A stretch of DNA of 64,000 nt from a virus. Location: IMG/VR virus record IMGVR_UViG_3300008116_000027, positions 1-64,000 of that record. The stretch is one strand, 5' to 3'. The position numbers and the translations under genes are program-made. Positions within the stretch are counted from its first letter, which is position 1, and the number at the start of each line of letters is the position of its first letter. This document shows, piece after piece, positions 1 through 48,500 of the stretch. The notes beneath the pieces were generated by a model. It was not told where the DNA came from, searched no databases, and saw nothing but the letters and a program-made list of their open reading frames with translations.

Positions 1-272
1 ATTTTGCCCCTATATTTATATATAAAAATAGGACATATATATCCAAGATGTACATATAGTACAAATCGGACATTATGTCCTAATATGATTATACTGTTAC
101 TTATAGGTTATAGTTACTGGACCACATAGTTCATTATATCTATCTATCTCTGCAGTCTTCCGTGCCTTTTCCGCCTTCTTCCATTTTCTAAAAGAAGCAA
201 GGGCGTGATTCTTATCCCGCCCATTGCCCTTCCATTTACGGGGTTTGCGTTGGCTAGATCCAGCAGCTTTGC

Positions 273-548
273 TCATGCCTGGATACCCACCTCATGAGCC
301 TCTATTACTTCAGCAAGATGTGAGGCAAGCATAATAGCCTCAGAGGTAAAACCTTCTTCCCAATACGCCTCAAACCTAGAAGCCTGTTCTTTAATGATTT
401 CGGTCATTAACTCCATTAGTCTATCTTGGGTATATAAAGGAAATCTATTTACAATTACACTAGCACATATAGAAGGATTAAACCAATGGTTATCCAATAC
501 TGTTGCTAATTGTTCTGCGATTTTATCTTCATCTGTTTTCTTTGCCAT
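273..548 (-). CDS. hypothetical protein (early region)
   Basis: 91-aa ORF preceded by AGAAAGGCGG and TGGTATAAT; same strand as the whole block. Confidence 0.75.
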   Translation of the reverse strand: MAKKTDEDKIAEQLATVLDNHWFNPSICASVIVNRFPLYTQDRLMELMTEIIKEQASRFEAYWEEGFTSEAIMLASHLAEVIEAHEVGIQA

Positions 549-632
549 ATCCGCCTTTCTAAAAGATTATACCAAAAAGGTTGGGGAAGGTCAATGTTTG
601 GGGGCCACTGACCCTCCCCAATGTTAGATAGT

Positions 633-779
633 TTACTTAGACTTGGTAGGAAGCTCTTTTGTAAACTGTACGCCATTCTTAACAGCCTCTGATAGAGCCT
701 GCTTAGCAGCACCTGAGAAGCGACCACGCTTGCCCACGGTAATGCCCTTGCTTACTAGATATTCACGTTTTGTTGTCAT
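633..779 (-). CDS. 48-aa Lsr2-like DNA-binding-domain peptide
   Basis: Translated by hand: MTTKREYLVSKGITVGKRGRFSGAAKQAL...; resembles the Lsr2 C-terminal motif (REW-x3-G-x2-V-x2-RGR); ATGA overlap with upstream gene. Confidence 0.6.
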   Translation of the reverse strand: MTTKREYLVSKGITVGKRGRFSGAAKQALSEAVKNGVQFTKELPTKSK

Positions 780-1222
780 TGTGTTGACCCTTCTAATACG
801 ACAGGCTCCGCCTTGAAACCTGATTCTTGCGTTCCATATTCAGTTGTGTTATCTGACTCCTCGTCAGAATCTTCGTCTTCGTCATCAAGCCAGTTGTCAT
901 CATCTAGGGCGACCAAGAAATTATTATTGATCATCCAATCCGTGACAGCCTCGTCCATGTACTCAGCGCCATACTCTAATGTAAATTGATCAGGCGGGTT
1001 ACCCCAGAGTTCCTCCCAGATATTATCTAGAGTTACTCCTTCTTTAACAACATATTCATTCCAATCAGATACAGTCTCATATGATTGATACTTATCTCGA
1101 ATAATATCCCAAGACCATAGCCATACTAATGGAATTCCTACATCCATATTATTTAAAGTATTTACTATTTGGTCCAATTGCATTTTGATCTTGACACCAC
1201 GATCATAGTCTGCATTATCCAC
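776..1222 (-). CDS. acidic hypothetical protein
   Basis: 148-aa ORF, GTG start after CAACGAAAGGG. Confidence 0.75.
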   Translation of the reverse strand: MDNADYDRGVKIKMQLDQIVNTLNNMDVGIPLVWLWSWDIIRDKYQSYETVSDWNEYVVKEGVTLDNIWEELWGNPPDQFTLEYGAEYMDEAVTDWMINNNFLVALDDDNWLDDEDEDSDEESDNTTEYGTQESGFKAEPVVLEGSTQ

Positions 1223-1469
1223 GTTGTTTAGCCCTTTCGTTGATAGCGAATGATAAATTATACGTCATAACATAGATATCTGTCAAGGCATCCAGCCTAC
1301 CTGATAAATATTGATATTCAGGATTATCTTGTAGCTCAGAAATGTCTAATAGTCTAGTTTCACATTCATACATTAAGTTTTTTAATTCTCCATGCATGAC
1401 ATCAGTTCCCGTTTCTCCCATATCTATCAGCTTTTGAAGATGTGGGCTTAATTCATCAGACATTATCAT
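1215..1469 (-). CDS. hypothetical protein
   Basis: ORF with GGAGGT RBS, overlapping the next gene. Confidence 0.7.
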   Translation of the reverse strand: MIMSDELSPHLQKLIDMGETGTDVMHGELKNLMYECETRLLDISELQDNPEYQYLSGRLDALTDIYVMTYNLSFAINERAKQRG

Positions 1470-1600
1470 TTGCTACCTCCAGTAGATGTCTAACTGCATG
1501 TATTTGTCCTTCTAAAAATATAAGATCTTCAGGGCTTTTATCTAATGGGTCTCTATCTTGATTAAGACTAATTAGATGTATATTCATATATTCAATCATC

Positions 1601-1798
1601 TTAGTATGATTCACCTTGTACATATCCTTCCGCTAATAGACCTTCAAAGAAATCCCATATGGTTAATAGACCTTGCTTAACGCTAGGGTCGGTGGCGGAA
1701 TCAATAGCAACAGTTAATGATGTACCAAACTCCTGTATATCCTTATATGTATATCCTAACATTCTATGTAGTATTCCTCTCCTGGTTCGACTTGCCAA
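1601..1798 (-). CDS. hypothetical protein (true start probably the internal MLGY)
   Basis: ORF track; AGGAGAGGA RBS precedes the internal ATG. Confidence 0.6.
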   Translation of the reverse strand: MASRTRRGILHRMLGYTYKDIQEFGTSLTVAIDSATDPSVKQGLLTIWDFFEGLLAEGYVQGESY

Positions 1799-1995
1799 TA
1801 TTCATTAAATTGTTTTTTGACGGATTCATCAGAGCACATGCTAGCCATTTCATAGTCAGCAATAAACATACCTTCGTCTAAATGACCTGATATCCAACTA
1901 TCAAATAAGTCCTCAGATATCTCTTGAACAATAGCATTTGCAATATGTTCAGGCATATCATCAAACATACTTGGTTTATCATTTGAATAACCCAT
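1756..1995 (-). CDS. acidic hypothetical protein
   Basis: ORF with CGAAAGGA RBS and promoter at 2020-2041. Confidence 0.8.
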   Translation of the reverse strand: MGYSNDKPSMFDDMPEHIANAIVQEISEDLFDSWISGHLDEGMFIADYEMASMCSDESVKKQFNEYWQVEPGEEYYIEC

Positions 1996-2152
1996 ATATA
2001 TCCTTTCGCTAGGACCTTAATTATATAACAGACCACTGACATTGTATATAGAATATAGGTGTGTTTTACACCACATGTCCAAAGCTTGAGATTTCAGGGA
2101 AATATATTTGACTTCCGTAAAGACAATATGCTACCCTCTCCTCTTTGAGGGC

Positions 2153-2277
2153 AAAAGAAATCCCCCCTGGGACAAGGGGGGATTAAGATGAATGGCTGCT
2201 AGGACCTCAACGAAAGGAAAAACCTGCCTTACTTAGCATCCAATAGATGCACCATTCTATGAATAGGCACAGGGCCT
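2153..2277 (-). ncRNA. candidate ~125-nt sRNA carrying an anti-RBS sequence UUUCCUUUCGUUG
   Basis: TGA-TATAAT at 2284-2292 (-), no ORF, ends in hairpin AATCCCCCC/GGGGGGATT plus T-tract; internal stems GAATGG/CCATTC and GCATC/GATGC. Confidence 0.6.
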
Positions 2278-2294
2278 AATCAAATTATATCACA

Positions 2295-2699
2295 CTAGAC
2301 TAGCAGTCTTTCTAGCGCATACTTCTCACAGAACGCTGTTAGGTCCATGGTAAAGATTGCTTCATTCTTCATACCTAAAACTTTATTCTCTAAGTTACGG
2401 TGATCGTCTTGCTCGTGTAATGAGAAGGTCTGATCTTTCCAGTTGATAACAGCAATCTTGTGCTCATTATCTCCAATTGAATTTACTTGAAGACCCCAGC
2501 CTGTTTCCATGTTCCATTGGTCTCCGATTAATTGGCTAATAGCAATACGTGTTGCATATGATTCATCTGTCCAACGAGGACGTGCTGCGATCACAGCATC
2601 CGCCAATTTGCCTAGCATGTTGTAGCCAGCCCAGTGCCCATATAGACATATGGTGTCACCCGCTCCGTCTACGAATACGTAATTTGCTCTGTCTCCCAT
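2295..2699 (-). CDS. conserved phage hypothetical protein (MGDRAN...YGHWAG type)
   Basis: 134-aa ORF, AAGGCGG RBS. Confidence 0.8.
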   Translation of the reverse strand: MGDRANYVFVDGAGDTICLYGHWAGYNMLGKLADAVIAARPRWTDESYATRIAISQLIGDQWNMETGWGLQVNSIGDNEHKIAVINWKDQTFSLHEQDDHRNLENKVLGMKNEAIFTMDLTAFCEKYALERLLV

Positions 2700-2700
2700 T

Positions 2701-2889
2701 TTAAACCGCCTTTTCTAGTTGAGGTATTTCTTCCGTTTTATTTAATTCTATCATTTCAAAGGCCCATTTGTCTAGGGTCTCTGAATTTTTATTTTTATGA
2801 TGTGAACAGAAAGCTAATTCACCGCCTGTACTACGAGCCAGGTATTTGGCTTGAGCTGGGCAGCTGTCGCATTTAATCCATTCGCTCAT
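2701..2889 (-). CDS. small Zn-finger protein (CxxC...FCxHH)
   Basis: CDSC and FCSHH motifs. Confidence 0.75.
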   Translation of the reverse strand: MSEWIKCDSCPAQAKYLARSTGGELAFCSHHKNKNSETLDKWAFEMIELNKTEEIPQLEKAV

Positions 2890-3032
2890 AGTTTATTGCT
2901 TTCTATCATGTCTGATAATCTATCTAATAACCATGAGTCAATATCTGCAATATCAATTTCCCGTAACTTATCAATCATTTCTTCACGGGCAAACTTATAT
3001 CCGTCTTGAAACCCATCTTTATAATCAGACAT
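2886..3032 (-). CDS. 48-aa hypothetical protein
   Basis: Translated by hand (MSDYKDGFQDGYKFAREEM...); fills the gap and overlaps both neighbours. Confidence 0.65.
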   Translation of the reverse strand: MSDYKDGFQDGYKFAREEMIDKLREIDIADIDSWLLDRLSDMIESNKL

Positions 3033-3264
3033 TTATCATCCTATCATATCTGTACGCTAATTCGTTATCAGCATACTTGCTCTCGATTAAAACCTTAAGT
3101 TGGTGCTTAGATATTAATCTAGTTACCTTCTCAATATTACCAGTTCCAATCTCGAAAGTCAATGCATCAAGATTATATGAATCAGGATCCAGGCCTCCAA
3201 CCTCAGCGTCCCATATAGAAAAATGGAACGCCTTAATTGAATCTGCTTTTAATTTATAATACAT
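3025..3264 (-). CDS. hypothetical protein
   Basis: ORF track 3025-3300; ATG at 3264 coupled to the upstream stop (TAATG). Confidence 0.65.
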   Translation of the reverse strand: MYYKLKADSIKAFHFSIWDAEVGGLDPDSYNLDALTFEIGTGNIEKVTRLISKHQLKVLIESKYADNELAYRYDRMINV

Positions 3265-3713
3265 TAGTTCCAATCCACATCTGTGTCTTCGATGCTCCAT
3301 GTGTTAACATCAACATTATGACTATTTGAATCTAATGATAATTCATCACCTAGATAATAATGTGCGTCAAAGTTTTCAACTTCATTAAATGGAACATCAA
3401 CCGTTACTTCAAATGATATAGTTCCAGTTACAGTTACTTGCTTAGATGGGTTAAGATCAAAGTATTCGCAGAGTTCACGAATTACATCATCTTTGTCATA
3501 GTTTGGATTAGACCATTCTATGATTTGATCATTTAGCCCGTCAATCTTATTTCGCAGGCTAAAGTACTCGGCAGTGCGTTGTCTAGCGTTTTCGAGCACC
3601 CATTCTAAATCTGTTACTTTTGTAATTGGAAATGTAACAGTTTCTCCGTCAATCACCTTGTACTGTACAAGGGCATTAGGATTATATGTGTCAGGTATTA
3701 CAGTTGATTCCAT
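3264..3713 (-). CDS. hypothetical protein
   Basis: 149-aa ORF, CAACGAAAGGAAA RBS, own promoter at 3744-3765. Confidence 0.85.
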   Translation of the reverse strand: MESTVIPDTYNPNALVQYKVIDGETVTFPITKVTDLEWVLENARQRTAEYFSLRNKIDGLNDQIIEWSNPNYDKDDVIRELCEYFDLNPSKQVTVTGTISFEVTVDVPFNEVENFDAHYYLGDELSLDSNSHNVDVNTWSIEDTDVDWN

Positions 3714-3714
3714 G

Positions 3715-4473
3715 TTAGTTTCCTTTCGTTGTGGTAGTGGCTAATTGTACACCATGGGTCTGACATTCTTTCATTGCTTCCTCATCTTGCCAAGAACCTT
3801 GATTGCATTCTGAGCAGAATTCACCGCAGCCGTCCTCACAATAATCTAATGTATTAAAGGATTGGCAAGCATAGCAGCGATTCTCGTATTCTAGTTTAGT
3901 TGTAACCTCACCATTTACAATCTCATATTCTCCTCCCCAGCCTTGCTCCTCTTCAAATTCTAAAGTAAGGACACAGTTCGGAATTAAGTTAGATAGTTTA
4001 ACTAATACAGAGACGGCAGGCGACCATGCAGTATTATATTTATATACTAGCCATTGGTCCTCACCATCAGACATATGCTCCAGTAGTTCAGTATCAGGAT
4101 ACTCGTCACCATCTGATACAGCAACATCCCATTTAGTTCCCCAATTAGAAGTATTCCAGTTATACCAGTCTTTCTGAGTCTTAGCATGCTCTACTTCTTT
4201 AGCAAACCAATCAGGGGAATTTGTATCTAGTCCTAGTCGTGCAGGTTGTTGAACATATTCTTCCATTGTAATACCATCCTCTAATGGAGAATGTATATTC
4301 CAAAAAGCAAAGACAGGATTAGAATAAGTAGACTTAGTTACTTCCATCTGCATAGTCTTCATGTTCCAACTATCATGCATTACTTCAAATGGCTGATTAA
4401 GTTTATCTTTAATTGAATCTACTTGGTCTTTAGGACCTTGTATAGTTAATGTGTTATACACCCAGTTAGGCAT
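3715..4473 (-). CDS. DUF1281/YubB ferredoxin-like domain protein with C-terminal Cys cluster
   Basis: MPNW start, DWYNWN..NWGTKWD and TAWSP motifs; start moved to the ATG after CAACGAAAGGA. Confidence 0.75.
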   Translation of the reverse strand: MPNWVYNTLTIQGPKDQVDSIKDKLNQPFEVMHDSWNMKTMQMEVTKSTYSNPVFAFWNIHSPLEDGITMEEYVQQPARLGLDTNSPDWFAKEVEHAKTQKDWYNWNTSNWGTKWDVAVSDGDEYPDTELLEHMSDGEDQWLVYKYNTAWSPAVSVLVKLSNLIPNCVLTLEFEEEQGWGGEYEIVNGEVTTKLEYENRCYACQSFNTLDYCEDGCGEFCSECNQGSWQDEEAMKECQTHGVQLATTTTKGN

Positions 4474-4595
4474 TTCATTCCTTTCGTTGAATGTCGCAAT
4501 TGTAGCAGAGTCAACTGACATTATCAAGGATTTTGGGGCTTTTTATATGTATGCCGTAAAAGAGCTATGTTGCCTTTAGCTCTGGGGGCAGCTTG

Positions 4596-4669
4596 CGATC
4601 CCAACGGGACTTGAACCCGTAGCCTCTACCGTGACAGGGTAACGATCTAACCAATTGATCTATGGGACC
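4596..4669 (-). tRNA. tRNA-Asp(GTC)
   Basis: Cloverleaf: acceptor GGTCCCA/TGGGATC, anticodon loop CTGTCAC, GTTCAAGTC T-loop; no encoded CCA. Confidence 0.93.
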
Positions 4670-4673
4670 AGAA

Positions 4674-4697
4674 TATAGGGCCCTTGCGGGCCCCATA
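4674..4697. terminator. hairpin after the DUF932 gene
   Basis: ATATAGGGCCC-TTGC-GGGCCCCATAT inverted repeat. Confidence 0.55.
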
Positions 4698-4701
4698 TTA
4701 T

Positions 4702-5718
4702 TTATACTAGTTGTAATTTATTTTGTACAACTTTTAACAAACGATTTTTTTCTGCGTTAATTGCAGGATCAAAACCGCTTGCAGATGCTAACATATTTTC
4801 AGTGTTAGTACCACGGGCATTGCGATGCCAATCTAAACGCTCAGTTAAAGCATTTAAAGCACCCCACGCATTACCAGCGATTGTGTGATTATATTCGCCA
4901 GTATAAATATCGTTAATTAAATTAACTTTATTTTCCCATTTCTTGATTGCACCCTTAACATCTTTATCAGGTTTTGGATAAGCAGCAAGAATGATTTCGT
5001 TAAATTGTTGAGCGGTAATTTCCGTCTCAATCATTAACTTAGCCATGATGTCGAATTTATCCATGTATGCATTGGCAAGACCTAAAGTCTCACGGGCAAC
5101 TTGAATGCGACCTTCCGCCGATTGTGTATGACGGATTTTGAAAGATTGCTTTACGCCATCTTTTTTCTTGATGCTACCCAATGCAAGATTGAGAGTATTA
5201 GCACACACAACACGAACGGGTGTTATGGATGCTTGAATTGCAATTGATCCATCATGCGATGTATTAATTAGCAAATATGTTTTAACCACATCTGCCACGC
5301 CGTTAGGATCGAGCACGGTCTCACGCTCTAAAGCAAGAGATCCAAATACAACACGTCCGCCACGGATTGAGCCAGCGGTCTCCCATCGGCCTCCACCATC
5401 TAGGATGTTATCACCAAATGCAAATAAATCTTCATTTTGCAATGGTACATAGCGCTCACCGACAATTCCTAAAACATCGGTTTGTGTTTTGTCCGTAGGA
5501 TTAGTACGCACAACATATTGATAGTTTTTATCGGATGTTAATTGAGATGGGATTTCTAAATCTTCTAATCTAACATTCCATCCGTTAAGATTTGCAGCAA
5601 CTAGCATTTCGCTAGTATTTTTTTCTTCTGTGAACACGGTACCTAAACCATGCCACGCAGGTTCACGGAATGATGCAAAACTTGCTACACCATTTTGTGA
5701 TTCTAGTTCATGAGCCAT
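4702..5718 (-). CDS. DUF932 family phage/plasmid protein (TIGR03299-like)
   Basis: MAHELE..AWHGLG, ETAGS..GGR, NTSHDGS, TPVRVVCANTL and RHT motifs. Confidence 0.9.
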   Translation of the reverse strand: MAHELESQNGVASFASFREPAWHGLGTVFTEEKNTSEMLVAANLNGWNVRLEDLEIPSQLTSDKNYQYVVRTNPTDKTQTDVLGIVGERYVPLQNEDLFAFGDNILDGGGRWETAGSIRGGRVVFGSLALERETVLDPNGVADVVKTYLLINTSHDGSIAIQASITPVRVVCANTLNLALGSIKKKDGVKQSFKIRHTQSAEGRIQVARETLGLANAYMDKFDIMAKLMIETEITAQQFNEIILAAYPKPDKDVKGAIKKWENKVNLINDIYTGEYNHTIAGNAWGALNALTERLDWHRNARGTNTENMLASASGFDPAINAEKNRLLKVVQNKLQLV

Positions 5719-5885
5719 TTTTATCCTTTCGTTTTGAGTTGCCTTATTCTAGCATACATGACTGACATCTGGCAATACTACTAAACATTCCAGGGGAAAA
5801 TTTGGACTTGACGTAAACAGAAAAATGCCCCCACAGCTTTGCGGGCAGGGAAATGGGCCAGGAGCAAGGACCTGGCCCAAGATTA

Positions 5886-6098
5886 TTAGATTAAAGAATG
5901 AATCTCTTCTGGAAAATAAGCAGCAAATATTTTTTTGTTATCTTTTGTATCAACTACATATGCTTTGACTGTTCCTTGAAAGCGTTTTATGTTTTGCTTA
6001 ACTGCTTTTGTAATTGCTTCACGATTTACATTTTCTTTAAAATAAAGAGTTAAATCGTGAGCTTTGTTTGCGTCGTAGATTTCTACACGATACCGCAT
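5886..6098 (-). CDS. hypothetical protein
   Basis: 70-aa ORF with AAAGGA RBS; followed by a GGGCCAGG/CCTGGCCC hairpin. Confidence 0.75.
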   Translation of the reverse strand: MRYRVEIYDANKAHDLTLYFKENVNREAITKAVKQNIKRFQGTVKAYVVDTKDNKKIFAAYFPEEIHSLI

Positions 6099-6167
6099 TT
6101 TATTCCTTTGTTAGTAGGGATAACTATTTTAACATAGGGGGCTAGATTTTGTCTAGCCCCCAGTTAA

Positions 6168-6590
6168 TTACAAGTATCTTGCGATAGCGTTGTATGTAGA
6201 AGTAGAAACTACTTCCTCATCGGTCATTTTAAGGATACGGATAGCGTTCTCTATCTCCTCTTTCATCTCACGATAACTATGAACATGGATTACCTCATAA
6301 TTACGCTCAGGCTCTTTTGGAAAGTCTTTCTCATCTATGATTAAATCAAAATCAACATTAAGAGTTGTGTTCCAAGAACGATAATTGGTGCGTAGGTTTT
6401 GTGCTTTGGCAATTTGTCCAACTGCCCATTTGCCAATATCCTTCTGCCACTTTTCGTATGCCTTCTTATATTTGGCTTCGTTCTCGTCTTGCTTTGTGTA
6501 GTCAGCCTCTATCTTTGCTAACTTTGTTTCTAGGGCTTTAATAACCTTAGCAGTTGCGATTTTTACCTGTATTGCTTTGCCTCTTGCCAT
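6168..6590 (-). CDS. hypothetical coiled-coil protein
   Basis: 140-aa ORF with AACGAAAGGA RBS and promoter. Confidence 0.85.
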   Translation of the reverse strand: MARGKAIQVKIATAKVIKALETKLAKIEADYTKQDENEAKYKKAYEKWQKDIGKWAVGQIAKAQNLRTNYRSWNTTLNVDFDLIIDEKDFPKEPERNYEVIHVHSYREMKEEIENAIRILKMTDEEVVSTSTYNAIARYL

Positions 6591-6657
6591 TGTATTCCTT
6601 TCGTTAGGTTGGTTGTATTGTAGCAGACCCTACCGACAATAGAGTCTGCTTATCTTA

Positions 6658-6801
6658 TTACTTAACTGATGCGCTAGTCCAGCGTTCCTTGCCATTTACA
6701 TCTAGCAAGATACGAGCAACACCTGAAGGGTGATTATCAATAGCCTTGATAATTCCCTGAATACCACTTTTAGTGGTTGTGTATAGTTGTCCGATTTCCA
6801 T
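6658..6801 (-). CDS. 47-aa hypothetical protein
   Basis: Translated by hand (MEIGQLYTTTKSGIQG...); own RBS and promoter at 6826-6847. Confidence 0.75.
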   Translation of the reverse strand: MEIGQLYTTTKSGIQGIIKAIDNHPSGVARILLDVNGKERWTSASVK

Positions 6802-6848
6802 TTGTTTCCTTTCGTTTAGGTTTGTATTATAGCACCCTCCACCGACAA

Positions 6849-7118
6849 TTAGTAGTCGGTTTCAGGTAGCCACGCTTCTAGGTGATGCGCTTCTATGATT
6901 GCTGAAGCAGGTGCTTGATCTCTGCCCTTCCATAGTACGCCTTCAGGTAATACGATCATCTTATCGTAGTCGTCCTCATAGTAAGCATCGATAGCATCGA
7001 TACATGGCTGTACCATTGATGCAGGTACGGGTGGATAATGATTACCTTGTAAGTGTATTAGTATTGCTTGATCTAAGTCAAAACTCTCAGCCAAGTCCAT
7101 TGCTGTATTTAGTCCCAT
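6849..7118 (-). CDS. hypothetical protein (HLQGNHYPPVP motif)
   Basis: 89-aa ORF coupled to the upstream stop. Confidence 0.8.
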   Translation of the reverse strand: MGLNTAMDLAESFDLDQAILIHLQGNHYPPVPASMVQPCIDAIDAYYEDDYDKMIVLPEGVLWKGRDQAPASAIIEAHHLEAWLPETDY

Positions 7119-7292
7119 TTATTCTAACTCCTCTAGTATAGTTTCGGATAGGTTTTCCATTTCGCTAATACTATCAACAAGGTCTGACATTTCTTTCTCT
7201 GTTAATAGTACTTTAGTAGTAAGGTCTGCTACCTTGCTATCATATATTGCTTTTTTTGTAGCCTCTGCTAATGATATTGCCGTTGCTAACAT
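7119..7292 (-). CDS. 57-aa hypothetical protein
   Basis: Translated by hand (MLATAISLAEATKKAIYD...); CAACGAAAGGAAA RBS and promoter at 7322-7343. Confidence 0.75.
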   Translation of the reverse strand: MLATAISLAEATKKAIYDSKVADLTTKVLLTEKEMSDLVDSISEMENLSETILEELE

Positions 7293-7346
7293 TTATTTCC
7301 TTTCGTTGTTGTAGTGGGTAGATTATACACCTACCCACCGACATTA

Positions 7347-7607
7347 TTAGGCTAAAACTACTAGAGCCTCAGAAGCACCAGCATTTACTCTATCTAACTC
7401 ATCCTGCAATTCCTCAACGCTTAGTTGAGTTGGGTCGCCAATAAGTTCTAGTGTCATGCGGATATTTTCAGCAGTAAACATTCCAGCAGGCAAGCGTTCT
7501 ACTTTAGGATAGAAAGAGCCTTGTGGGTCTAGCATAGAGTTAAACTTAACTCCATTAACTTCGAATGGGTAAGAGACCCAATTCGTTGTATCTAGCATTG
7601 TTTGCAT
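7347..7607 (-). CDS. hypothetical protein
   Basis: 86-aa ORF with RBS and promoter. Confidence 0.8.
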   Translation of the reverse strand: MQTMLDTTNWVSYPFEVNGVKFNSMLDPQGSFYPKVERLPAGMFTAENIRMTLELIGDPTQLSVEELQDELDRVNAGASEALVVLA

Positions 7608-7874
7608 GTATTTCCTTTCGTTTGATTAGTGGAATTATAGCAGGCCTAACTGACATTATCTAAAACACGCCACAAATTCCAGGGTGTTTTATATCACACT
7701 CTTAAAGACACGCCCGACCCCGCAGGTGTGTGGGCGCCTTTTATCCGCTAAGCCCGTTTTCATCTTTATCTGGTTTAGTATATGTGGCAACAAATAAAAA
7801 AATTATAAATGGAGCGATTATAAATAAACTTAATAAGGCGCCAATTATTTCACCTAACAAAAAATCCATGGGCC

Positions 7875-8594
7875 CTATTTCTTAGTAGCAGAAAATCTAA
7901 TATCTGCTTTACCATAAACACACAATCCGCAAGATACGCAAGCAGAACCGCTAGCAGAAATTAATGGAATGCTTTTATTGTTTTCAGGACACTTAGCGCC
8001 AGGCTTACCAATTAATTCTTTCATAGTATTTTCGGTAACGGCAAAAGTCTTCCCAAGATAAGCCAATCTAATTTTAGTACCAGTCTTACGCAGATCATGC
8101 GCTATATCTTTATTCTCATCATCCGTAGAATAATAAAGAGATAGATTAGCAATGTTATCTAGAATAAGCGCAGCAGACTTAACTCGTGTATAAACCCAGA
8201 ATTGAATATCAGCATTAGTTAAGATTACGTATTGCCATGCACGTGCATAGGTATCATTAAAGAAATCTCCATCCCAGTGGATACGGAATAATAATTTAGC
8301 ATTTTTCTTTTCACAATCTTTTCTAAAATCATTAATCATATTTTCTAATAGGTCTACCATAGTAGGCTCATCAGCGTCTTTTAATAAATTCCAATTGTGC
8401 ATGAGCACGTCTCTTACACCTTTATAAACTTTTTCTAATTTGCCAGCATAACACACGCTTTCGCATATGCTAGTAGCGCCAGGACATGAGAATGCTTTAC
8501 CAGCAGGCAACCCGAATGTATTAGCAATGGCAGGGGTCTTACCATTTTTAGAAACTAAATTAGTTACTTTTCTGTCATTAGATCTTTTTAACAT
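7875..8594 (-). CDS. GP88-like Cys-rich (putative Fe-S) protein
   Basis: FGLPAG...CPGA..IC...CYA, FRIHWDGDF, WVYTR and C-terminal CxxCxLC; leaderless ATG 7 nt after TATAAT. Confidence 0.7.
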   Translation of the reverse strand: MLKRSNDRKVTNLVSKNGKTPAIANTFGLPAGKAFSCPGATSICESVCYAGKLEKVYKGVRDVLMHNWNLLKDADEPTMVDLLENMINDFRKDCEKKNAKLLFRIHWDGDFFNDTYARAWQYVILTNADIQFWVYTRVKSAALILDNIANLSLYYSTDDENKDIAHDLRKTGTKIRLAYLGKTFAVTENTMKELIGKPGAKCPENNKSIPLISASGSACVSCGLCVYGKADIRFSATKK

Positions 8595-8623
8595 GGGGGT
8601 AATTATAGCAGGGGCAGGTGACA

Positions 8624-8779
8624 TTAGAGGTCACCCATCTCTGCATCTGCCATGCGTGTCATAGCCCAATCAGCTGCTAGATCACGATCATACACGGCCA
8701 TGCCTTCCGTAGTATAGCCACGGGCACAAATTGTGCAAATAGAGTGATTAGTACAGTAGCATGAATTGATATCGTTCAT
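8624..8779 (-). CDS. 51-aa Cys-rich hypothetical protein
   Basis: Start MNDINSCYC after AACGAAAGG and promoter at 8806-8827. Confidence 0.7.
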   Translation of the reverse strand: MNDINSCYCTNHSICTICARGYTTEGMAVYDRDLAADWAMTRMADAEMGDL

Positions 8780-8913
8780 TAGTTGACCTTTCGTTAAGTA
8801 ATGGAATACTAACAGATCACACTGACATTTACAAATCGACACGCCGCAGATTTCGGGGGATTTTTTTAATGTGGCGTAAATCACAAAATGCCCCCACAGG
8901 GTTTGTGGGCGCA

Positions 8914-8929
8914 TCGAACGTTTGTTCTA
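8914..8929. promoter_or_regulatory. LexA (SOS) box-like site
   Basis: TCGAAC-GTTT-GTTCTA versus the actinobacterial consensus TCGAAC-N4-GTTCGA; second copy TCGAAC-AAAA-GTTCGG at 11040-11055. Confidence 0.55.
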
Positions 8930-8933
8930 ATAA

Positions 8934-9062
8934 TTAATTAGAAGCTTTTTTATGTTTTATTTTTCTAGTATATTTTTTTTTATTGCGAACAGGTTGCGCC
9001 GCATTTGATCGGCGCAATTCCTGAATGCGTTTTACTTTATTTAGAAGAGAAGTTTGGAACAT
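8934..9062 (-). CDS. 42-aa highly basic peptide
   Basis: Translated by hand: MFQTSLLNKVKRIQELRRSNAAQPVRNKKKYTRKIKHKKASN. Confidence 0.6.
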   Translation of the reverse strand: MFQTSLLNKVKRIQELRRSNAAQPVRNKKKYTRKIKHKKASN

Positions 9063-9228
9063 TATAACCGCTTGCCTCATAGAATTTATTTACATTAAAA
9101 TTAGAATTCTCTTTGGCACACAACTCCGCAAAATCTAAAACCATTTTAGAAAAAATAGCGGGGTGAGTTTTGTTAGAGTTATATTTTAAAATTGTAGCAA
9201 TTTCTTTAAAATGTTTTTTTGTCATCAT
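9037..9228 (-). CDS. hypothetical protein (MTKKHF...NFNVNKF type)
   Basis: 63-aa ORF, ATGA overlap. Confidence 0.75.
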   Translation of the reverse strand: MMTKKHFKEIATILKYNSNKTHPAIFSKMVLDFAELCAKENSNFNVNKFYEASGYNVPNFSSK

Positions 9229-9425
9229 TTAGCAGACACCAAACCAATCTGATTAAAGTTTTTAGTATACATTTTGCCATTAGGCATTTCTAAATTATAG
9301 GTTGCGTATTCATTAGCAAAACCGTGATCTTTACATCTAGCAAAAGCCTCAAACGCTTCTAATGCGTCAGAGAATTGGTGTGTAAATTCTAGTTTGCCGT
9401 CATACCAAGTAAATAGTTTAAACAT
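9225..9425 (-). CDS. hypothetical protein
   Basis: ATG at 9425 coupled to the upstream stop. Confidence 0.7.
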   Translation of the reverse strand: MFKLFTWYDGKLEFTHQFSDALEAFEAFARCKDHGFANEYATYNLEMPNGKMYTKNFNQIGLVSAK

Positions 9426-9556
9426 TAAATCCCCCAAGTTTCTAAAGCGCAATCGCAACTTTTAACGTCAAATTCTTTTTCATCTCCATAGAATACAAAT
9501 CCTGCGCCACCGCATTCATCACACTCTACGCCAATTATTTCTGCGATATTTCCCAT
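9425..9556 (-). CDS. 43-aa Zn-finger-like peptide (CDECGG...CDC)
   Basis: Translated by hand; RBS and promoter at 9584-9605. Confidence 0.7.
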   Translation of the reverse strand: MGNIAEIIGVECDECGGAGFVFYGDEKEFDVKSCDCALETWGI

Positions 9557-9735
9557 TTTATTTCCTTCCGTTTATTTAGCAGTATTGTATCAGTTATCAC
9601 TGACAATTGGCAAAACTGGAGAGCCTTCTAACTCTAAGCCAATTTCTAAATTAAGTAATTCTGAAGGCGTGGCTTCGGATAAATCTACCCAGCCAGCACC
9701 TTCATCATTTAAGCGAAAAATTTCTACATATCCCA

Positions 9736-9930
9736 TTATTCACCAACCTTTACGCCAACAGTTCGCACCTTACGGGCTGAACCAACTTCCACTAAATAAC
9801 TTTCGATATTCATTCCGTAGAATGTAGCACGAGGATCTTTTTCGGCAGAAACAATTTCGCCTTCCAAAGTATTTGATCGATAGTGTTTACCCACTAACAG
9901 GTTTTCTATTGTGTAGATATTTGCAGACAT
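9736..9930 (-). CDS. hypothetical protein
   Basis: 64-aa ORF with promoter at 9962-9983; a 48-aa ORF (9590-9736) follows. Confidence 0.75.
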   Translation of the reverse strand: MSANIYTIENLLVGKHYRSNTLEGEIVSAEKDPRATFYGMNIESYLVEVGSARKVRTVGVKVGE

Positions 9931-10032
9931 TGCAACCTTCTTTCTTTTTGGTTATGCCGATATTATACTAGACCCCACCGACAATTTGCATATTACTTGT
10001 GAGTAATTCCATATTTTGAGACGCTCAACTCA

Positions 10033-10224
10033 TGTGATCATAATCACATGCGACACGCCAGACACGCCCGAAGTTATCCACGACACGCCCGAAGTTATCC
10101 ACAAATTTTCAGGGTTTTTCCACATCTGTGCGTAAACCTGTGGATAACCGCCCACAAAAGATTGGGGGCAGCTATCGCCTTTGTCAAGGCGACACGCCGT
10201 CTATTCTTTGTGAGTTTGCTCACA
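10033..10224. promoter_or_regulatory. cluster of CRP-type palindromes, DnaA boxes and GACAC motifs
   Basis: TGTGA-N6-TCACA at 10033-10048 and 10209-10224; DnaA-type boxes at 10074, 10095, 10116 and 10139; GACACGCC at 10052, 10061, 10082 and 10191; 21-bp tandem repeat at 10061-10102. Confidence 0.8.
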
Positions 10225-10824
10225 TACGCATTTAGTATATGCGCCTGCGTTTAACCTGCCACATTTAGGGCAGGTATAAAATCCGCTAGGGTTAGCCATT
10301 TATTTATCTCTCCTAATTAATTTAATCGAATAGATAAATGCGATAGTGCCTACTAATAGCCATGTCGGAATACTAATTTGTAATCCTATGCTATCAGCGT
10401 ATAAACCAAATGCGTTTAAGTCTAAGTATAATTCCATTTATTCTGCCTCCTCCCAATCTAGTGTTAATTCATTTTCGATTATCTCATCAAGGCTAATCAT
10501 GTCCTCATCAAATAGCGTTTCGCTATTGTGTTTATCTAGTTTTTCTAATTCGTCTAAGTGTGTATAAGCGTCTGCCACATCTAGTTGGATAGTGTCCCAT
10601 TTAGTCATCATTAGTTATTACCTCCATTAACAATAGCACCGACAATAGCAATTATAGTTATCGTGCCTAACACAATAGGCAAAACAATATGAGGATAATC
10701 CTCTACCCAATCAAAAAATAGCATATTAGTTATTCTCCTCATCAATTCCAAACATCTCAGCAAACACTTTGTTTGCTTGTTGTAAGGCTTCTATCGCCTC
10801 GTTTATCTTATCCATGTTATCCAT
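10201..10824 (-). other. run of five tightly packed micro-ORFs (32, 37, 57, 45 and 32 aa; two hydrophobic, one CxxC)
   Basis: Translated by hand: 10726-10824, 10611-10724, 10438-10611, 10300-10437, 10201-10299; abutting or overlapping stops and starts, purine-rich RBSs. Confidence 0.7.
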
Positions 10825-10900
10825 TTTCTTACCTTCTTTCGTTGTTGTTATGGTGAAACCTTAGCATACCTAACCGACAATCGGCAAGGCGACACACCCC

Positions 10901-11080
10901 TTAGAGGGTGTGAGATACCTCACATGCGGTATCGCATCTAGGCACATCTGCCATTATTAAGCGTAGCAGACCTACACGCTCAGACTTAGTAAGTCTAAGA
11001 CGGCTAACGGTATCAGGCTTGATACCTCCATGATTATATTCGAACAAAAGTTCGGTATAGATATCGTCTAAGTTATTCAT
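10901..11080 (-). CDS. 59-aa first gene of the leftward block
   Basis: Translated by hand (MNNLDDIYTELLFEYNHGG...); ACGAAAGGA RBS. Confidence 0.7.
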   Translation of the reverse strand: MNNLDDIYTELLFEYNHGGIKPDTVSRLRLTKSERVGLLRLIMADVPRCDTACEVSHTL

Positions 11081-11112
11081 TTATTTATCCTTTCGTAGAT
11101 AATTTTAGTTGA

Positions 11113-11164
11113 GAGCGGTTATTCGCTAGGCTCACCTTTCGGGTTATTTGCTAGGCTCACGCTC
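11113..11164 (-). repeat. twin 19-nt repeat enclosed by a stem, in a 5' UTR
   Basis: GGTTATTCGCTAGGCTCAC (11117-11135) and GGTTATTTGCTAGGCTCAC (11142-11160), flanked by GAGCG/CGCTC. Confidence 0.8.
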
Positions 11165-11423
11165 TAATTCTTTATTTTGTTATACTATAATCATATAAGG
11201 GGGCACTGACATTTTGCCACTCACAAATCGGACATGTCGGACATTTTAAAATAAATCTTTTCTAAATCGTGTGATATACCCCACATATGGTCGCTCTAAT
11301 AGGACAAATCGGACATTTTAAAACCATGGATCATACAAATAAAATCTCTATTAACATTTTATGAAATCTGATATTATAGTCAACTAGGATTATATGGATA
11401 TATATGGGGGGATTTAAGAAAGA

Positions 11424-47991: not shown

Positions 47992-48500
47992 CAGCTGATT
48001 TTAAATTAGATGCTATGCTAGAAATTAGAAAGTTCCTCTGGTCAGAATTAGTAGAAGCAGGCATATTCGACTCAGATGAGTATTATAGCGATAATATAGG
48101 AAAATCCGTAGTCCCTATAATCCCAGTTCAGCAGGCCCCAGAAATGAACCAATTCTTAAGTGGAAAAAAGCATATAATTTATGACAAGATAGGTCTTTCA
48201 TATGAGGACAATTGGTTGATATGCTGTGAGCAAGTTCTTTTTACTGTATATTCCATAGATGTATCAGAGATCAATGAAATAAGAAATTTTATGACTGATC
48301 TATTTAGGAGAATGGACGACTCTGCAAAAGATATCAATAGATTTCAAAAATTAAATAATAAGTTTAAATTCCATAGTATTTTTATAGCCGACATATCTCC
48401 CACAGAGCCCTCTGAAGAACTACAGGGCTTTCTTTCAACAGACATTATTCTAGAGGTCAAATATTCAAGAATAACAGACTCAGTAGGCCGATTCCTCTAA
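47988..48500 (+). CDS. tail terminator-like protein
   Basis: Synteny directly before the major tail gene. Confidence 0.55.
   Translation: MTADFKLDAMLEIRKFLWSELVEAGIFDSDEYYSDNIGKSVVPIIPVQQAPEMNQFLSGKKHIIYDKIGLSYEDNWLICCEQVLFTVYSIDVSEINEIRNFMTDLFRRMDDSAKDINRFQKLNNKFKFHSIFIADISPTEPSEELQGFLSTDIILEVKYSRITDSVGRFL

Follow-up and report, generated by a model that had tools for sequence, protein, structure and literature searches.

Introduction

Class I CRP promoters carry a 16-bp TGTGA-N6-TCACA palindrome upstream of the promoter, at positions that shift in steps of one helical turn. They are known from the lac type of Escherichia coli, from CRP1 of whiB1 in Mycobacterium tuberculosis and from GlxR-controlled promoters of Corynebacterium, and the class I positions described are -61.5, -71.5, -81.5 and -91.5 (PMC2844151). 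In Actinobacteria, PafBC-dependent (RecA-NDp) promoters, which work by sigma adaptation, have the published consensus tGTCgg-N10-tA-N3-T (PMC8635444). Here we describe a viral control region in which elements resembling both kinds recur together. The stretch of DNA analysed, hereafter the window, comprises positions 1-64,000, that is the first 64 kb, of the 76.9-kb IMG/VR viral contig IMGVR_UViG_3300008116_000027, which is ~71% complete and has ~35% GC. Our subject is the segment 10033-11285 of this window, where CRP-type palindromes, DnaA-type TTATCCACA boxes and the GC-rich word GGCGTGTC (read as GACACGCC on the plus strand) crowd into a hub among small early genes.

Two other bodies of work provide points of comparison. 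DnaA acts as a transcription factor or roadblock in the stimulation of lambda pR and in the DnaA-box block of the asnC transcript. Among phages, repeated control units are known from the PeSL cassettes of T4-type phages and from the host-takeover or terminal-repeat early blocks of SPO1, T5 and Streptomyces cluster BE phages. Cluster A mycobacteriophages have stoperators, sites within transcribed DNA to which the phage repressor binds.

The phage palindromes share with class I CRP promoters the 16-bp motif upstream of a promoter and the steps of one helical turn, and they have an AT-rich centre, a weak TA and K/M at positions 6/11. Unlike class I sites they match the consensus perfectly, which sites in host genomes almost never do, and they precede PafBC-type cores in place of -35/-10 promoters; they are also shifted in position, present in many copies, in part located within coding sequence, and known here from sequence alone. 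The phage core agrees with PafBC-dependent promoters in sequence and spacing, whereas the phage has 15 copies in an 11-kb block that drive small genes of unknown function, and its cores add a weak -35 TTGnnA and upstream CRP-type, DnaA-type and GGCGTGTC elements undescribed for the host promoters. As in the DnaA-box clusters of oriC and datA, the TTATCCACA 9-mers stand two helical turns apart, at a density like that of host-lineage oriC flanks. Unlike those clusters, they are spread over several units, always past a terminator and at a fixed distance upstream of palindrome and promoter, and neither an unwinding element nor a unique location was seen for them.

With T4-type PeSL cassettes and the early blocks named above, the region has in common repeated units of terminator and early promoter between many small early genes, together with a gene content that varies among relatives and has its breakpoints in repeats. 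It differs from the PeSL cassettes in carrying ordered upstream sites that match host regulators and keep a strict helical register. Its short conserved words, repeated through the block and tied to transcription or translation starts, recall Cluster A stoperators and the start-associated sequences of Cluster K; unlike stoperators they lie upstream of promoters, and a phage reader for them is not among the known ones. Among the papers available to our literature search, nothing relevant was found on CRP/GlxR or DnaA sites in actinophage early regions. What is new here is the spacing statistics, the checks in a candidate host order, a negative result on enrichment in host genomes, the contrast with the Streptomyces phage Coruscant and the anatomy of the hub copy.

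Results

The hub is an enlarged copy of a repeated control cassette

Comparison with related phages shows that a control cassette is repeated and that the hub, upstream of gene 9736-9930, is an enlarged copy of it. The region 10033-11285 as a whole is two or three cassette copies that separate small leftward early genes, the neighbouring copies being at 10858-10924 and 11190-11285. Read leftward, the cassette opens with a terminator hairpin, followed by one TTATCCACA box or a pair with 21-bp spacing, CCCTGAAA, TGTGA-N6-TCACA, GGCGTGTC, the core promoter and a AACGAAAGGA ribosome-binding site (RBS), and this order was found repeatedly per locus across 80 related loci. In all, more than 80 related actinophages from fresh water have the cassette. 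In three near-complete genomes, the perfect palindromes and the cores all fall within the early block, as do most boxes and nearly all GACACGCC/GGCGTGTC words (all but one in the relative G004). In 55% of the 751 unique promoter contexts, the 130 bp upstream contain a palindrome that is perfect (29%) or has one mismatch (26%), against 4% in downstream control DNA (~2% perfect, ~2% one-mismatch). All motifs that a sequence-only reading had listed in this hub are present where it had placed them, far above chance, and the conservation in relatives that it had proposed to examine holds for the sites as well as for their phasing.

In an alignment of the orthologous hub from nine phages, mean identity is 76%, and the invariant columns are the motifs themselves, TTGAGCGTCTCA, ATTACT-N4-AGTA and the core promoter. 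All hub motifs are located upstream, in the leftward sense, of PafBC-type promoters. There are 15 such cores on the minus strand between 2020 and 11212, of the form A(A/T)TGTC(A/G)GT-N9-TAnnnT, and outside the early block the contig contains only one further match, at 48373, attributable to chance. Written as TGTCRG-N10-TANNNT, the core agrees with the PafBC consensus in both sequence and spacing; it has a -26 element in place of a -35, with a weak TTGnnA frequent at the -35 position. The LexA box (TCGAAC-N4-GTTCGA) was not found in the window. Nearly every small leftward gene has its own promoter followed by the RBS and an ATG, and for most cores the near-invariant AACGAAAGGA stands 5-8 nt before that ATG.

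Three cores belong to the region of the hub. The first, at 9962..9984 on the minus strand, reads TTGTCGGT-N9-TATAAT and is the promoter of gene 9736-9930(-). The second, at 10858..10880 on the minus strand, is preceded by GTGTGTCGCC and TTGCCG and serves the gene run from 10824 to 10201(-). The third, at 11190..11212 on the minus strand, is the most upstream of the early block.

Gene content past the GP88-like gene differs among relatives, and a MAFFT alignment was not usable there. In metagenome and metatranscriptome contigs of close relatives we observed cassette-to-cassette joints (8846>10122, 7732>10180 and 9573>6608) at which the genes between are skipped; the repeated cassettes therefore bound gene-content variants.

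Palindromes keep a helical register with the core promoters

Distances were measured from the palindrome centre to the first base of the -10 hexamer for 188 unique spacers, which form 39 sequence-unrelated classes. The modal distances are 42 bp (7 classes), 51-53 bp (11 classes), 61-62 bp (7 classes), 72-73 bp (3 classes) and 81-84 bp (3 classes), a ladder with a period of 10-10.25 bp (Rayleigh R 0.66, p ~3e-8). One-mismatch sites stand on the same ladder in 175 of 201 cases (87%), and a reversed-pattern control yielded only 4 matches. It is unlikely (roughly 0.01) that five rungs would share one phase if each rung came from a single ancestor. Longer spacers, of 94-110 bp, lie outside the ladder, and at least some of these carry two palindromes. 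A spacer that drifts in sequence while its length and the motif stay fixed is, by analogy with class I CRP promoters, the signature of protein sites that face the transcription machinery.

These statistics bear on the possibility that the sub-motifs are functionless, the cassette being a promoter-terminator unit spread by duplication and recombination, with its internal words carried along as inherited baggage. The cassettes are indeed paralogous repeats, and the joints described above show repeats mediating gene shuffling. Yet spacers that have diverged into 39 classes still have lengths on a 10-bp ladder, boxes occupy the same slot in either orientation, motif columns are invariant in the hub alignment with its 76% mean identity, and palindromes are retained even within coding sequence. 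We consider it highly improbable that words maintained in this way are baggage.

Three perfect palindromes lie in the window

Perfect TGTGA-N6-TCACA has only three copies in the 64 kb, at 10033, 10209 and 10909, where the chance expectation at the base composition of the window is ~0.1 per 100 kb. Relatives provide 225 unique contexts of perfect palindromes, in which the centre is rich in AT and K and M occupy positions 6 and 11, respectively. The copy at 10033..10048 (TGTGATCATAATCACA) is centred 73 bp upstream of the -10 of the promoter of gene 9736-9930(-), and at its orthologous position ATGTGATTA....CACA is invariant in nine relatives. The other two overlap genes. One, at 10209..10224 (TGTGAGTTTGCTCACA), is within the 3' end of the 32-amino-acid zinc-ribbon open reading frame (ORF) 10201-10299(-) and is followed leftward, after 13 bp, by GGCGTGTCGCCTTGACA. 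The other, at 10909..10924 (TGTGAGATACCTCACA), is within the 3' end of the 59-amino-acid ORF 10901-11080(-), and the promoter at 10858-10880 has its -10 53 bp downstream of the centre of this palindrome. Both ORFs thus have a palindrome in their final codons, where DNA site and coding sequence are co-conserved in relatives. The arrangement CAAGGCGACAC-N13-TGTGA-N6-TCACA occurs twice with the same spacing, at 10185 and 10885.

Imperfect copies accompany other promoters. A one-mismatch palindrome at 11270..11285 is 82 bp (counted by hand) upstream of the -10 of the promoter at 11190-11212, and an 82-bp class also exists in relatives. Another one-mismatch copy, degenerate and directly past a terminator hairpin, occupies 8870..8885; its distance to the next -10 is 66 bp, off the 10-bp ladder. 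For a two-mismatch relic at 7683..7698, the distance to the -10 is ~51 bp, the promoter here being that at 7634-7656.

Some observations on individual genes and cassettes belong here. The product of 10201-10299(-) is a CxxC...CxC zinc-ribbon-like peptide, and 10901-11080(-) is the first early gene, for whose 59-amino-acid protein five homologues were found. In the cassette at 5719-5885, upstream of the DUF932 gene (4702-5718), the palindrome has been lost by a ~40-bp deletion in the window phage and its closest relatives, and the DnaA-type box has decayed in the window phage; most other relatives retain both palindrome and box.

DnaA-type boxes fill a fixed slot between terminator and palindrome

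Four DnaA-type boxes form a cluster at 10074..10147 (TTATCCACG at 10074, TTATCCACA at 10095, TTTTCCACA at 10116 and TGTGGATAA at 10139), 21-23 bp apart. This amounts to 4 boxes in 75 bp, compared with a window mean of 0.036 per 100 bp. Word plus box are duplicated in tandem, as a perfect 21-bp repeat, at 10061-10102, and the four-box state of the window is partly due to this recent duplication. Paired boxes in relatives have their centres ~24 and ~45 bp upstream of the palindrome centre; boxes in the same orientation are 21 bp apart and facing ones 23-24 bp, and the same slot is filled by either orientation.

Several further elements surround the cluster. A terminator-like hairpin, GCTGCCCCCAATCTTTTGTGGGCGG, at 10148..10172 on the minus strand separates the 32-amino-acid ORF from the boxes; its sequence varies among orthologues while the hairpin is retained. 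At 10181..10199, also on the minus strand, the element ACGGCGTGTCGCCTTGACA is invariant in nine orthologous regions except for one variable column (C or G between GTCG and CTTGACA), and it contains the GACACGCC at 10191. Between palindrome and core promoter, on the minus strand, are ATTACT-N4-AGTAAT (9992-10007), which covers the -35 zone, and TTGAGCGTCTCA (10017-10028), both largely invariant in the nine orthologous regions. TTGAGCGTCTYA was found in 52 of the 80 related loci. A Logan contig from a lake metatranscriptome, ~95% identical, covers the intergenic hub from 10002 to 10224 and reflects either read-through transcription or DNA carry-over.

The sequence-only reading had offered a DnaA-dependent replication origin or a datA-like DnaA decoy as possible roles for the cluster. 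At 4 boxes in 75 bp, the cluster is as dense as the host-lineage oriC flanks (4 in ~170 bp); its boxes fit the host-lineage consensus, the TTATCCACG variant included, and replicating copies of phage DNA would titrate DnaA to some extent. However, boxes occur in 2-5 cassettes per genome, always between terminator and promoter and at a fixed distance from the palindrome. Most orthologous copies have only one or two boxes and some have none. GC skew, which had been suggested as a check, follows transcription direction only and gives no origin signal. An origin or decoy as the main role of these boxes thus seems improbable to us.

The GC-rich word belongs to a longer, apparently lineage-specific element

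Exact GACACGCC occurs six times in the window, each time on the plus strand (7707, 8838, 10052, 10061, 10082 and 10191). Allowing at most one mismatch, there are 18 copies where 9.4 are expected, a count reached in 0 of 100 shuffles. Three GGCGTGTC words on the minus strand lie within 10052..10102 (GACACGCC on the plus strand at 10052, 10061 and 10082), and orthologous hubs have between 1 and 3 copies. Elsewhere the word stands at 8838..8845 on the minus strand, at about -42 of the promoter at 8806-8828, and at 7707..7714 on the minus strand, directly past the terminator hairpin at 7719-7734.

The GACAC core of this word had led to its being read as a binding site of host WhiA, which would tie the early genes to the cell-division cycle. 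GACAC does lie within the word, and the word is conserved in a position-specific manner in 292 + 86 unique contexts of relatives. The conserved unit, though, is the longer CGGCGTGTCG, often fused to TTGACA, and its main locations are at about -42, next to the -35 zone, or directly past terminators. Moreover, Coruscant has another GC-rich word, GGCGCCCGGCGCC, in the equivalent slot, which points to a lineage-specific reader and away from a universal host factor. We therefore do not retain the WhiA assignment, which we regard as very unlikely; the factor that reads GGCGTGTC is probably peculiar to this phage lineage.

The window phage is a low-GC actinophage of lakes

The portal protein of the window phage has ~56% identity to its counterparts in Streptomyces phages of the Stanwilliamsviridae, Wakanda and Coruscant among them, and WhiB, which marks an actinobacterial host, is encoded in all 4 of the 4 complete relatives (109-116 kb). 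On the strength of these two findings we take the window phage to be a low-GC actinophage. It is a freshwater phage of roughly 110 kb and a member of a very large family known from freshwater metagenomes. Its GP88-like gene, 7875-8624(-), matched more than 595 related stretches in IMG/VR, and the window sequence itself is present in lake-water runs from at least 14 studies. A nucleotide search of the hub region against 50,697 phage records returned 0 matches.

The early block extends from window position 1 to ~11,300 and holds ~30 small leftward genes of unknown function. No recognisable DNA-binding domains were found among its proteins, 20 of which were without a Pfam DNA-binding match. In the window contig and the four complete relatives, none of the Crp HTH, cNMP-binding, DnaA_C, HTH_3 (Cro/CI-type) or WYL domains was found.

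Other features of the block and the family are recorded for completeness. The 13-mer ACAAATCGGACAT, at 61-73, 11223-11235 and 11304-11316, flanks the early block on both sides. Words of the (TC)GGACAT type recur within several cassettes of relatives. The ORF 633-779(-) encodes 48 amino acids, is basic and has a GKRGRFSG motif, by which it might be a small nucleoid-protein-like DNA binder; the early block of Coruscant has an annotated Lsr2-like protein. In the relative G004 (116,220 bp), the recorded 'direct terminal repeat' is a 120-bp overlap made of a 45-bp tandem repeat, which is more readily taken for a product of assembly closure than for a terminal repeat of the physical genome.

A candidate host order encodes the matching regulators

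We entered a candidate host order, probably Nanopelagicales, through one of two Actinomycetota metagenome-assembled genomes (MAGs) into which phage contigs of this family are binned, and sampled 31 genomes of 1.2-2.2 Mb. One CRP orthologue is present in 31 of 31, with the proviso that the order is a candidate one. This CRP matches that of M. tuberculosis (PDB 3D0S) with an E value of 1e-78, and the helix-turn-helix stretch ASRETVNKALADFA is identical. WYL-domain genes are likewise present in 31 of 31 genomes of this candidate order, typically as an adjacent pair, as expected for pafBC. In this order dnaA is flanked by perfect TTATCCACA-type boxes. The dnaA-dnaN spacer of one genome holds four boxes and the stretch upstream of dnaA another four, with the TTATCCACG variant among them.

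In M. tuberculosis, binding of CRP to the E. coli-type consensus is strongest in the absence of mismatches and appreciable even without cyclic AMP (cAMP), and the protein activates from upstream class I positions (PMC4117774, PMC2844151). Sites of perfect consensus should therefore, with near certainty, be bound by host CRP and DnaA once an actinobacterial cell is infected.

Discussion

By analogy with the described systems, the cassette would combine a PafBC-type core with the mode of action of a class I CRP promoter. The palindrome would serve as an upstream activator site on a single helical face, and the host CRP/GlxR orthologue is its most likely occupant. The perfect TTATCCACA boxes would most likely be held by host DnaA, acting either as a co-regulator or, close behind the terminator, as a roadblock. 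Early genes would thereby be switched on in line with the cAMP, replication and DNA-damage state of the host. A palindrome is also present at the most upstream promoter, from which transcription should begin while no phage protein has yet been made. On balance, we lean towards host CRP and DnaA as the proteins that read the cassette.

The match of the palindromes to CRP sites, put forward in the sequence-only reading, is backed in that they are conserved in the phage family, confined to the early block and helically phased, and in that the candidate order has a CRP with an identical recognition helix; in genomes of that order the palindrome is not enriched. For the DnaA-type sites, conservation, confinement to the early block, a fixed register and agreement with the TTATCCACA boxes at oriC in the candidate order are likewise seen, and it is the origin or decoy that is unlikely as the main role.

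A number of observations weigh against reading by host CRP and DnaA. A minority of three spacer classes, at 57-58 bp, is off the ladder. If the -10 hexamer is assumed to start at -12, the estimated absolute positions of the palindromes are about -54.5, about -64.5 and so on, which differ from the class I positions of E. coli (-61.5 and onward) and from -58.5 at M. tuberculosis whiB1. In the window the palindrome is kept at only ~5 of 15 promoters, and one orthologous cassette is without its palindrome. The sequence flanking the boxes (GGYTTACG, CCCTGAAA) is conserved as well, and the true site may exceed a DnaA box. Five genomes of the candidate order have 0-1 perfect palindromes each, and one-mismatch palindromes in genomes of this order are not enriched over a reversed control, those inspected being coding. 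Assignment of the host is itself ambiguous, since contigs of this phage family are binned in MAGs of Bacteroidia, a cyanobacterium, Actinomycetota and others. Finally, Coruscant has the same layout with other upstream words and no TGTGA palindromes, although Streptomyces has CRP.

The Coruscant comparison deserves attention in its own right. Positions 1-11000 of this genome (NC_070782.1) hold a homologous early block of small leftward genes, in which the cassette consists of a terminator, GGCGCCCGGCGCC, TAGATG-N7-CATCTA, an ordinary -35/-10 promoter (-35 TTGCAT, -10 TAAGCT) and a related RBS. We know of no description of these cassette words. That they differ is what would be predicted of phage-encoded readers that co-evolve with their sites. 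The palindromes, boxes and GC-rich word might accordingly be operators of phage-encoded or virion-delivered regulators, involved in shut-off or autoregulation, and their match to host consensus sequences a coincidence or incidental mimicry. Besides the different palindromes of Coruscant, GGCGCCCGGCGCC and TAGATG-N7-CATCTA, within an unchanged layout, this explanation can draw on some 30 small early proteins as candidate readers, on the conserved box flanks and on the lack of palindrome enrichment in host genomes; helical phasing would also be needed for looping or cooperative repression. On the other side, neither the early proteins nor the four complete relatives have a recognisable DNA-binding domain of the kinds sought, and the PafBC core, the CRP 16-mer and the DnaA 9-mer each match the consensus of a separate host factor exactly, an agreement that chance would seldom produce. 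The sites occupy positions of about -55 to -95, in the zone of activators and clear of the core promoter, and one is carried by the promoter that would fire before phage protein is made. Abundant host CRP and DnaA would, moreover, bind perfect consensus sites anyway. On this evidence we consider phage-encoded readers a serious, though less likely, explanation.

Returning to host CRP and DnaA as the readers, a more ambitious proposal is that the early promoters take three inputs and are read wholly by the host, with recognition by PafBC (activated by single-stranded DNA), activation by CRP bound in register, and insulation or gating of each unit by DnaA. The phage would thereby adjust its early expression to DNA damage, cAMP and replication in a host that grows slowly and is oligotrophic. 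We advance this joint proposal tentatively, as a possibility that the arrangement of the cassette brings to mind and that may well not hold in full.

These phages, an abundant and uncultured group, are widespread in lakes, and their likely hosts are among the most abundant freshwater bacteria. The perfect-consensus sites provide ready probes for DNA binding by CRP and DnaA in organisms that are hard to culture. If the three-input proposal is true, PafBC-type promoters would for the first time be seen at work beyond the DNA-damage regulon of cells, and the family would offer a clear natural case of a lytic phage that wires its first genes to several host master regulators at once.

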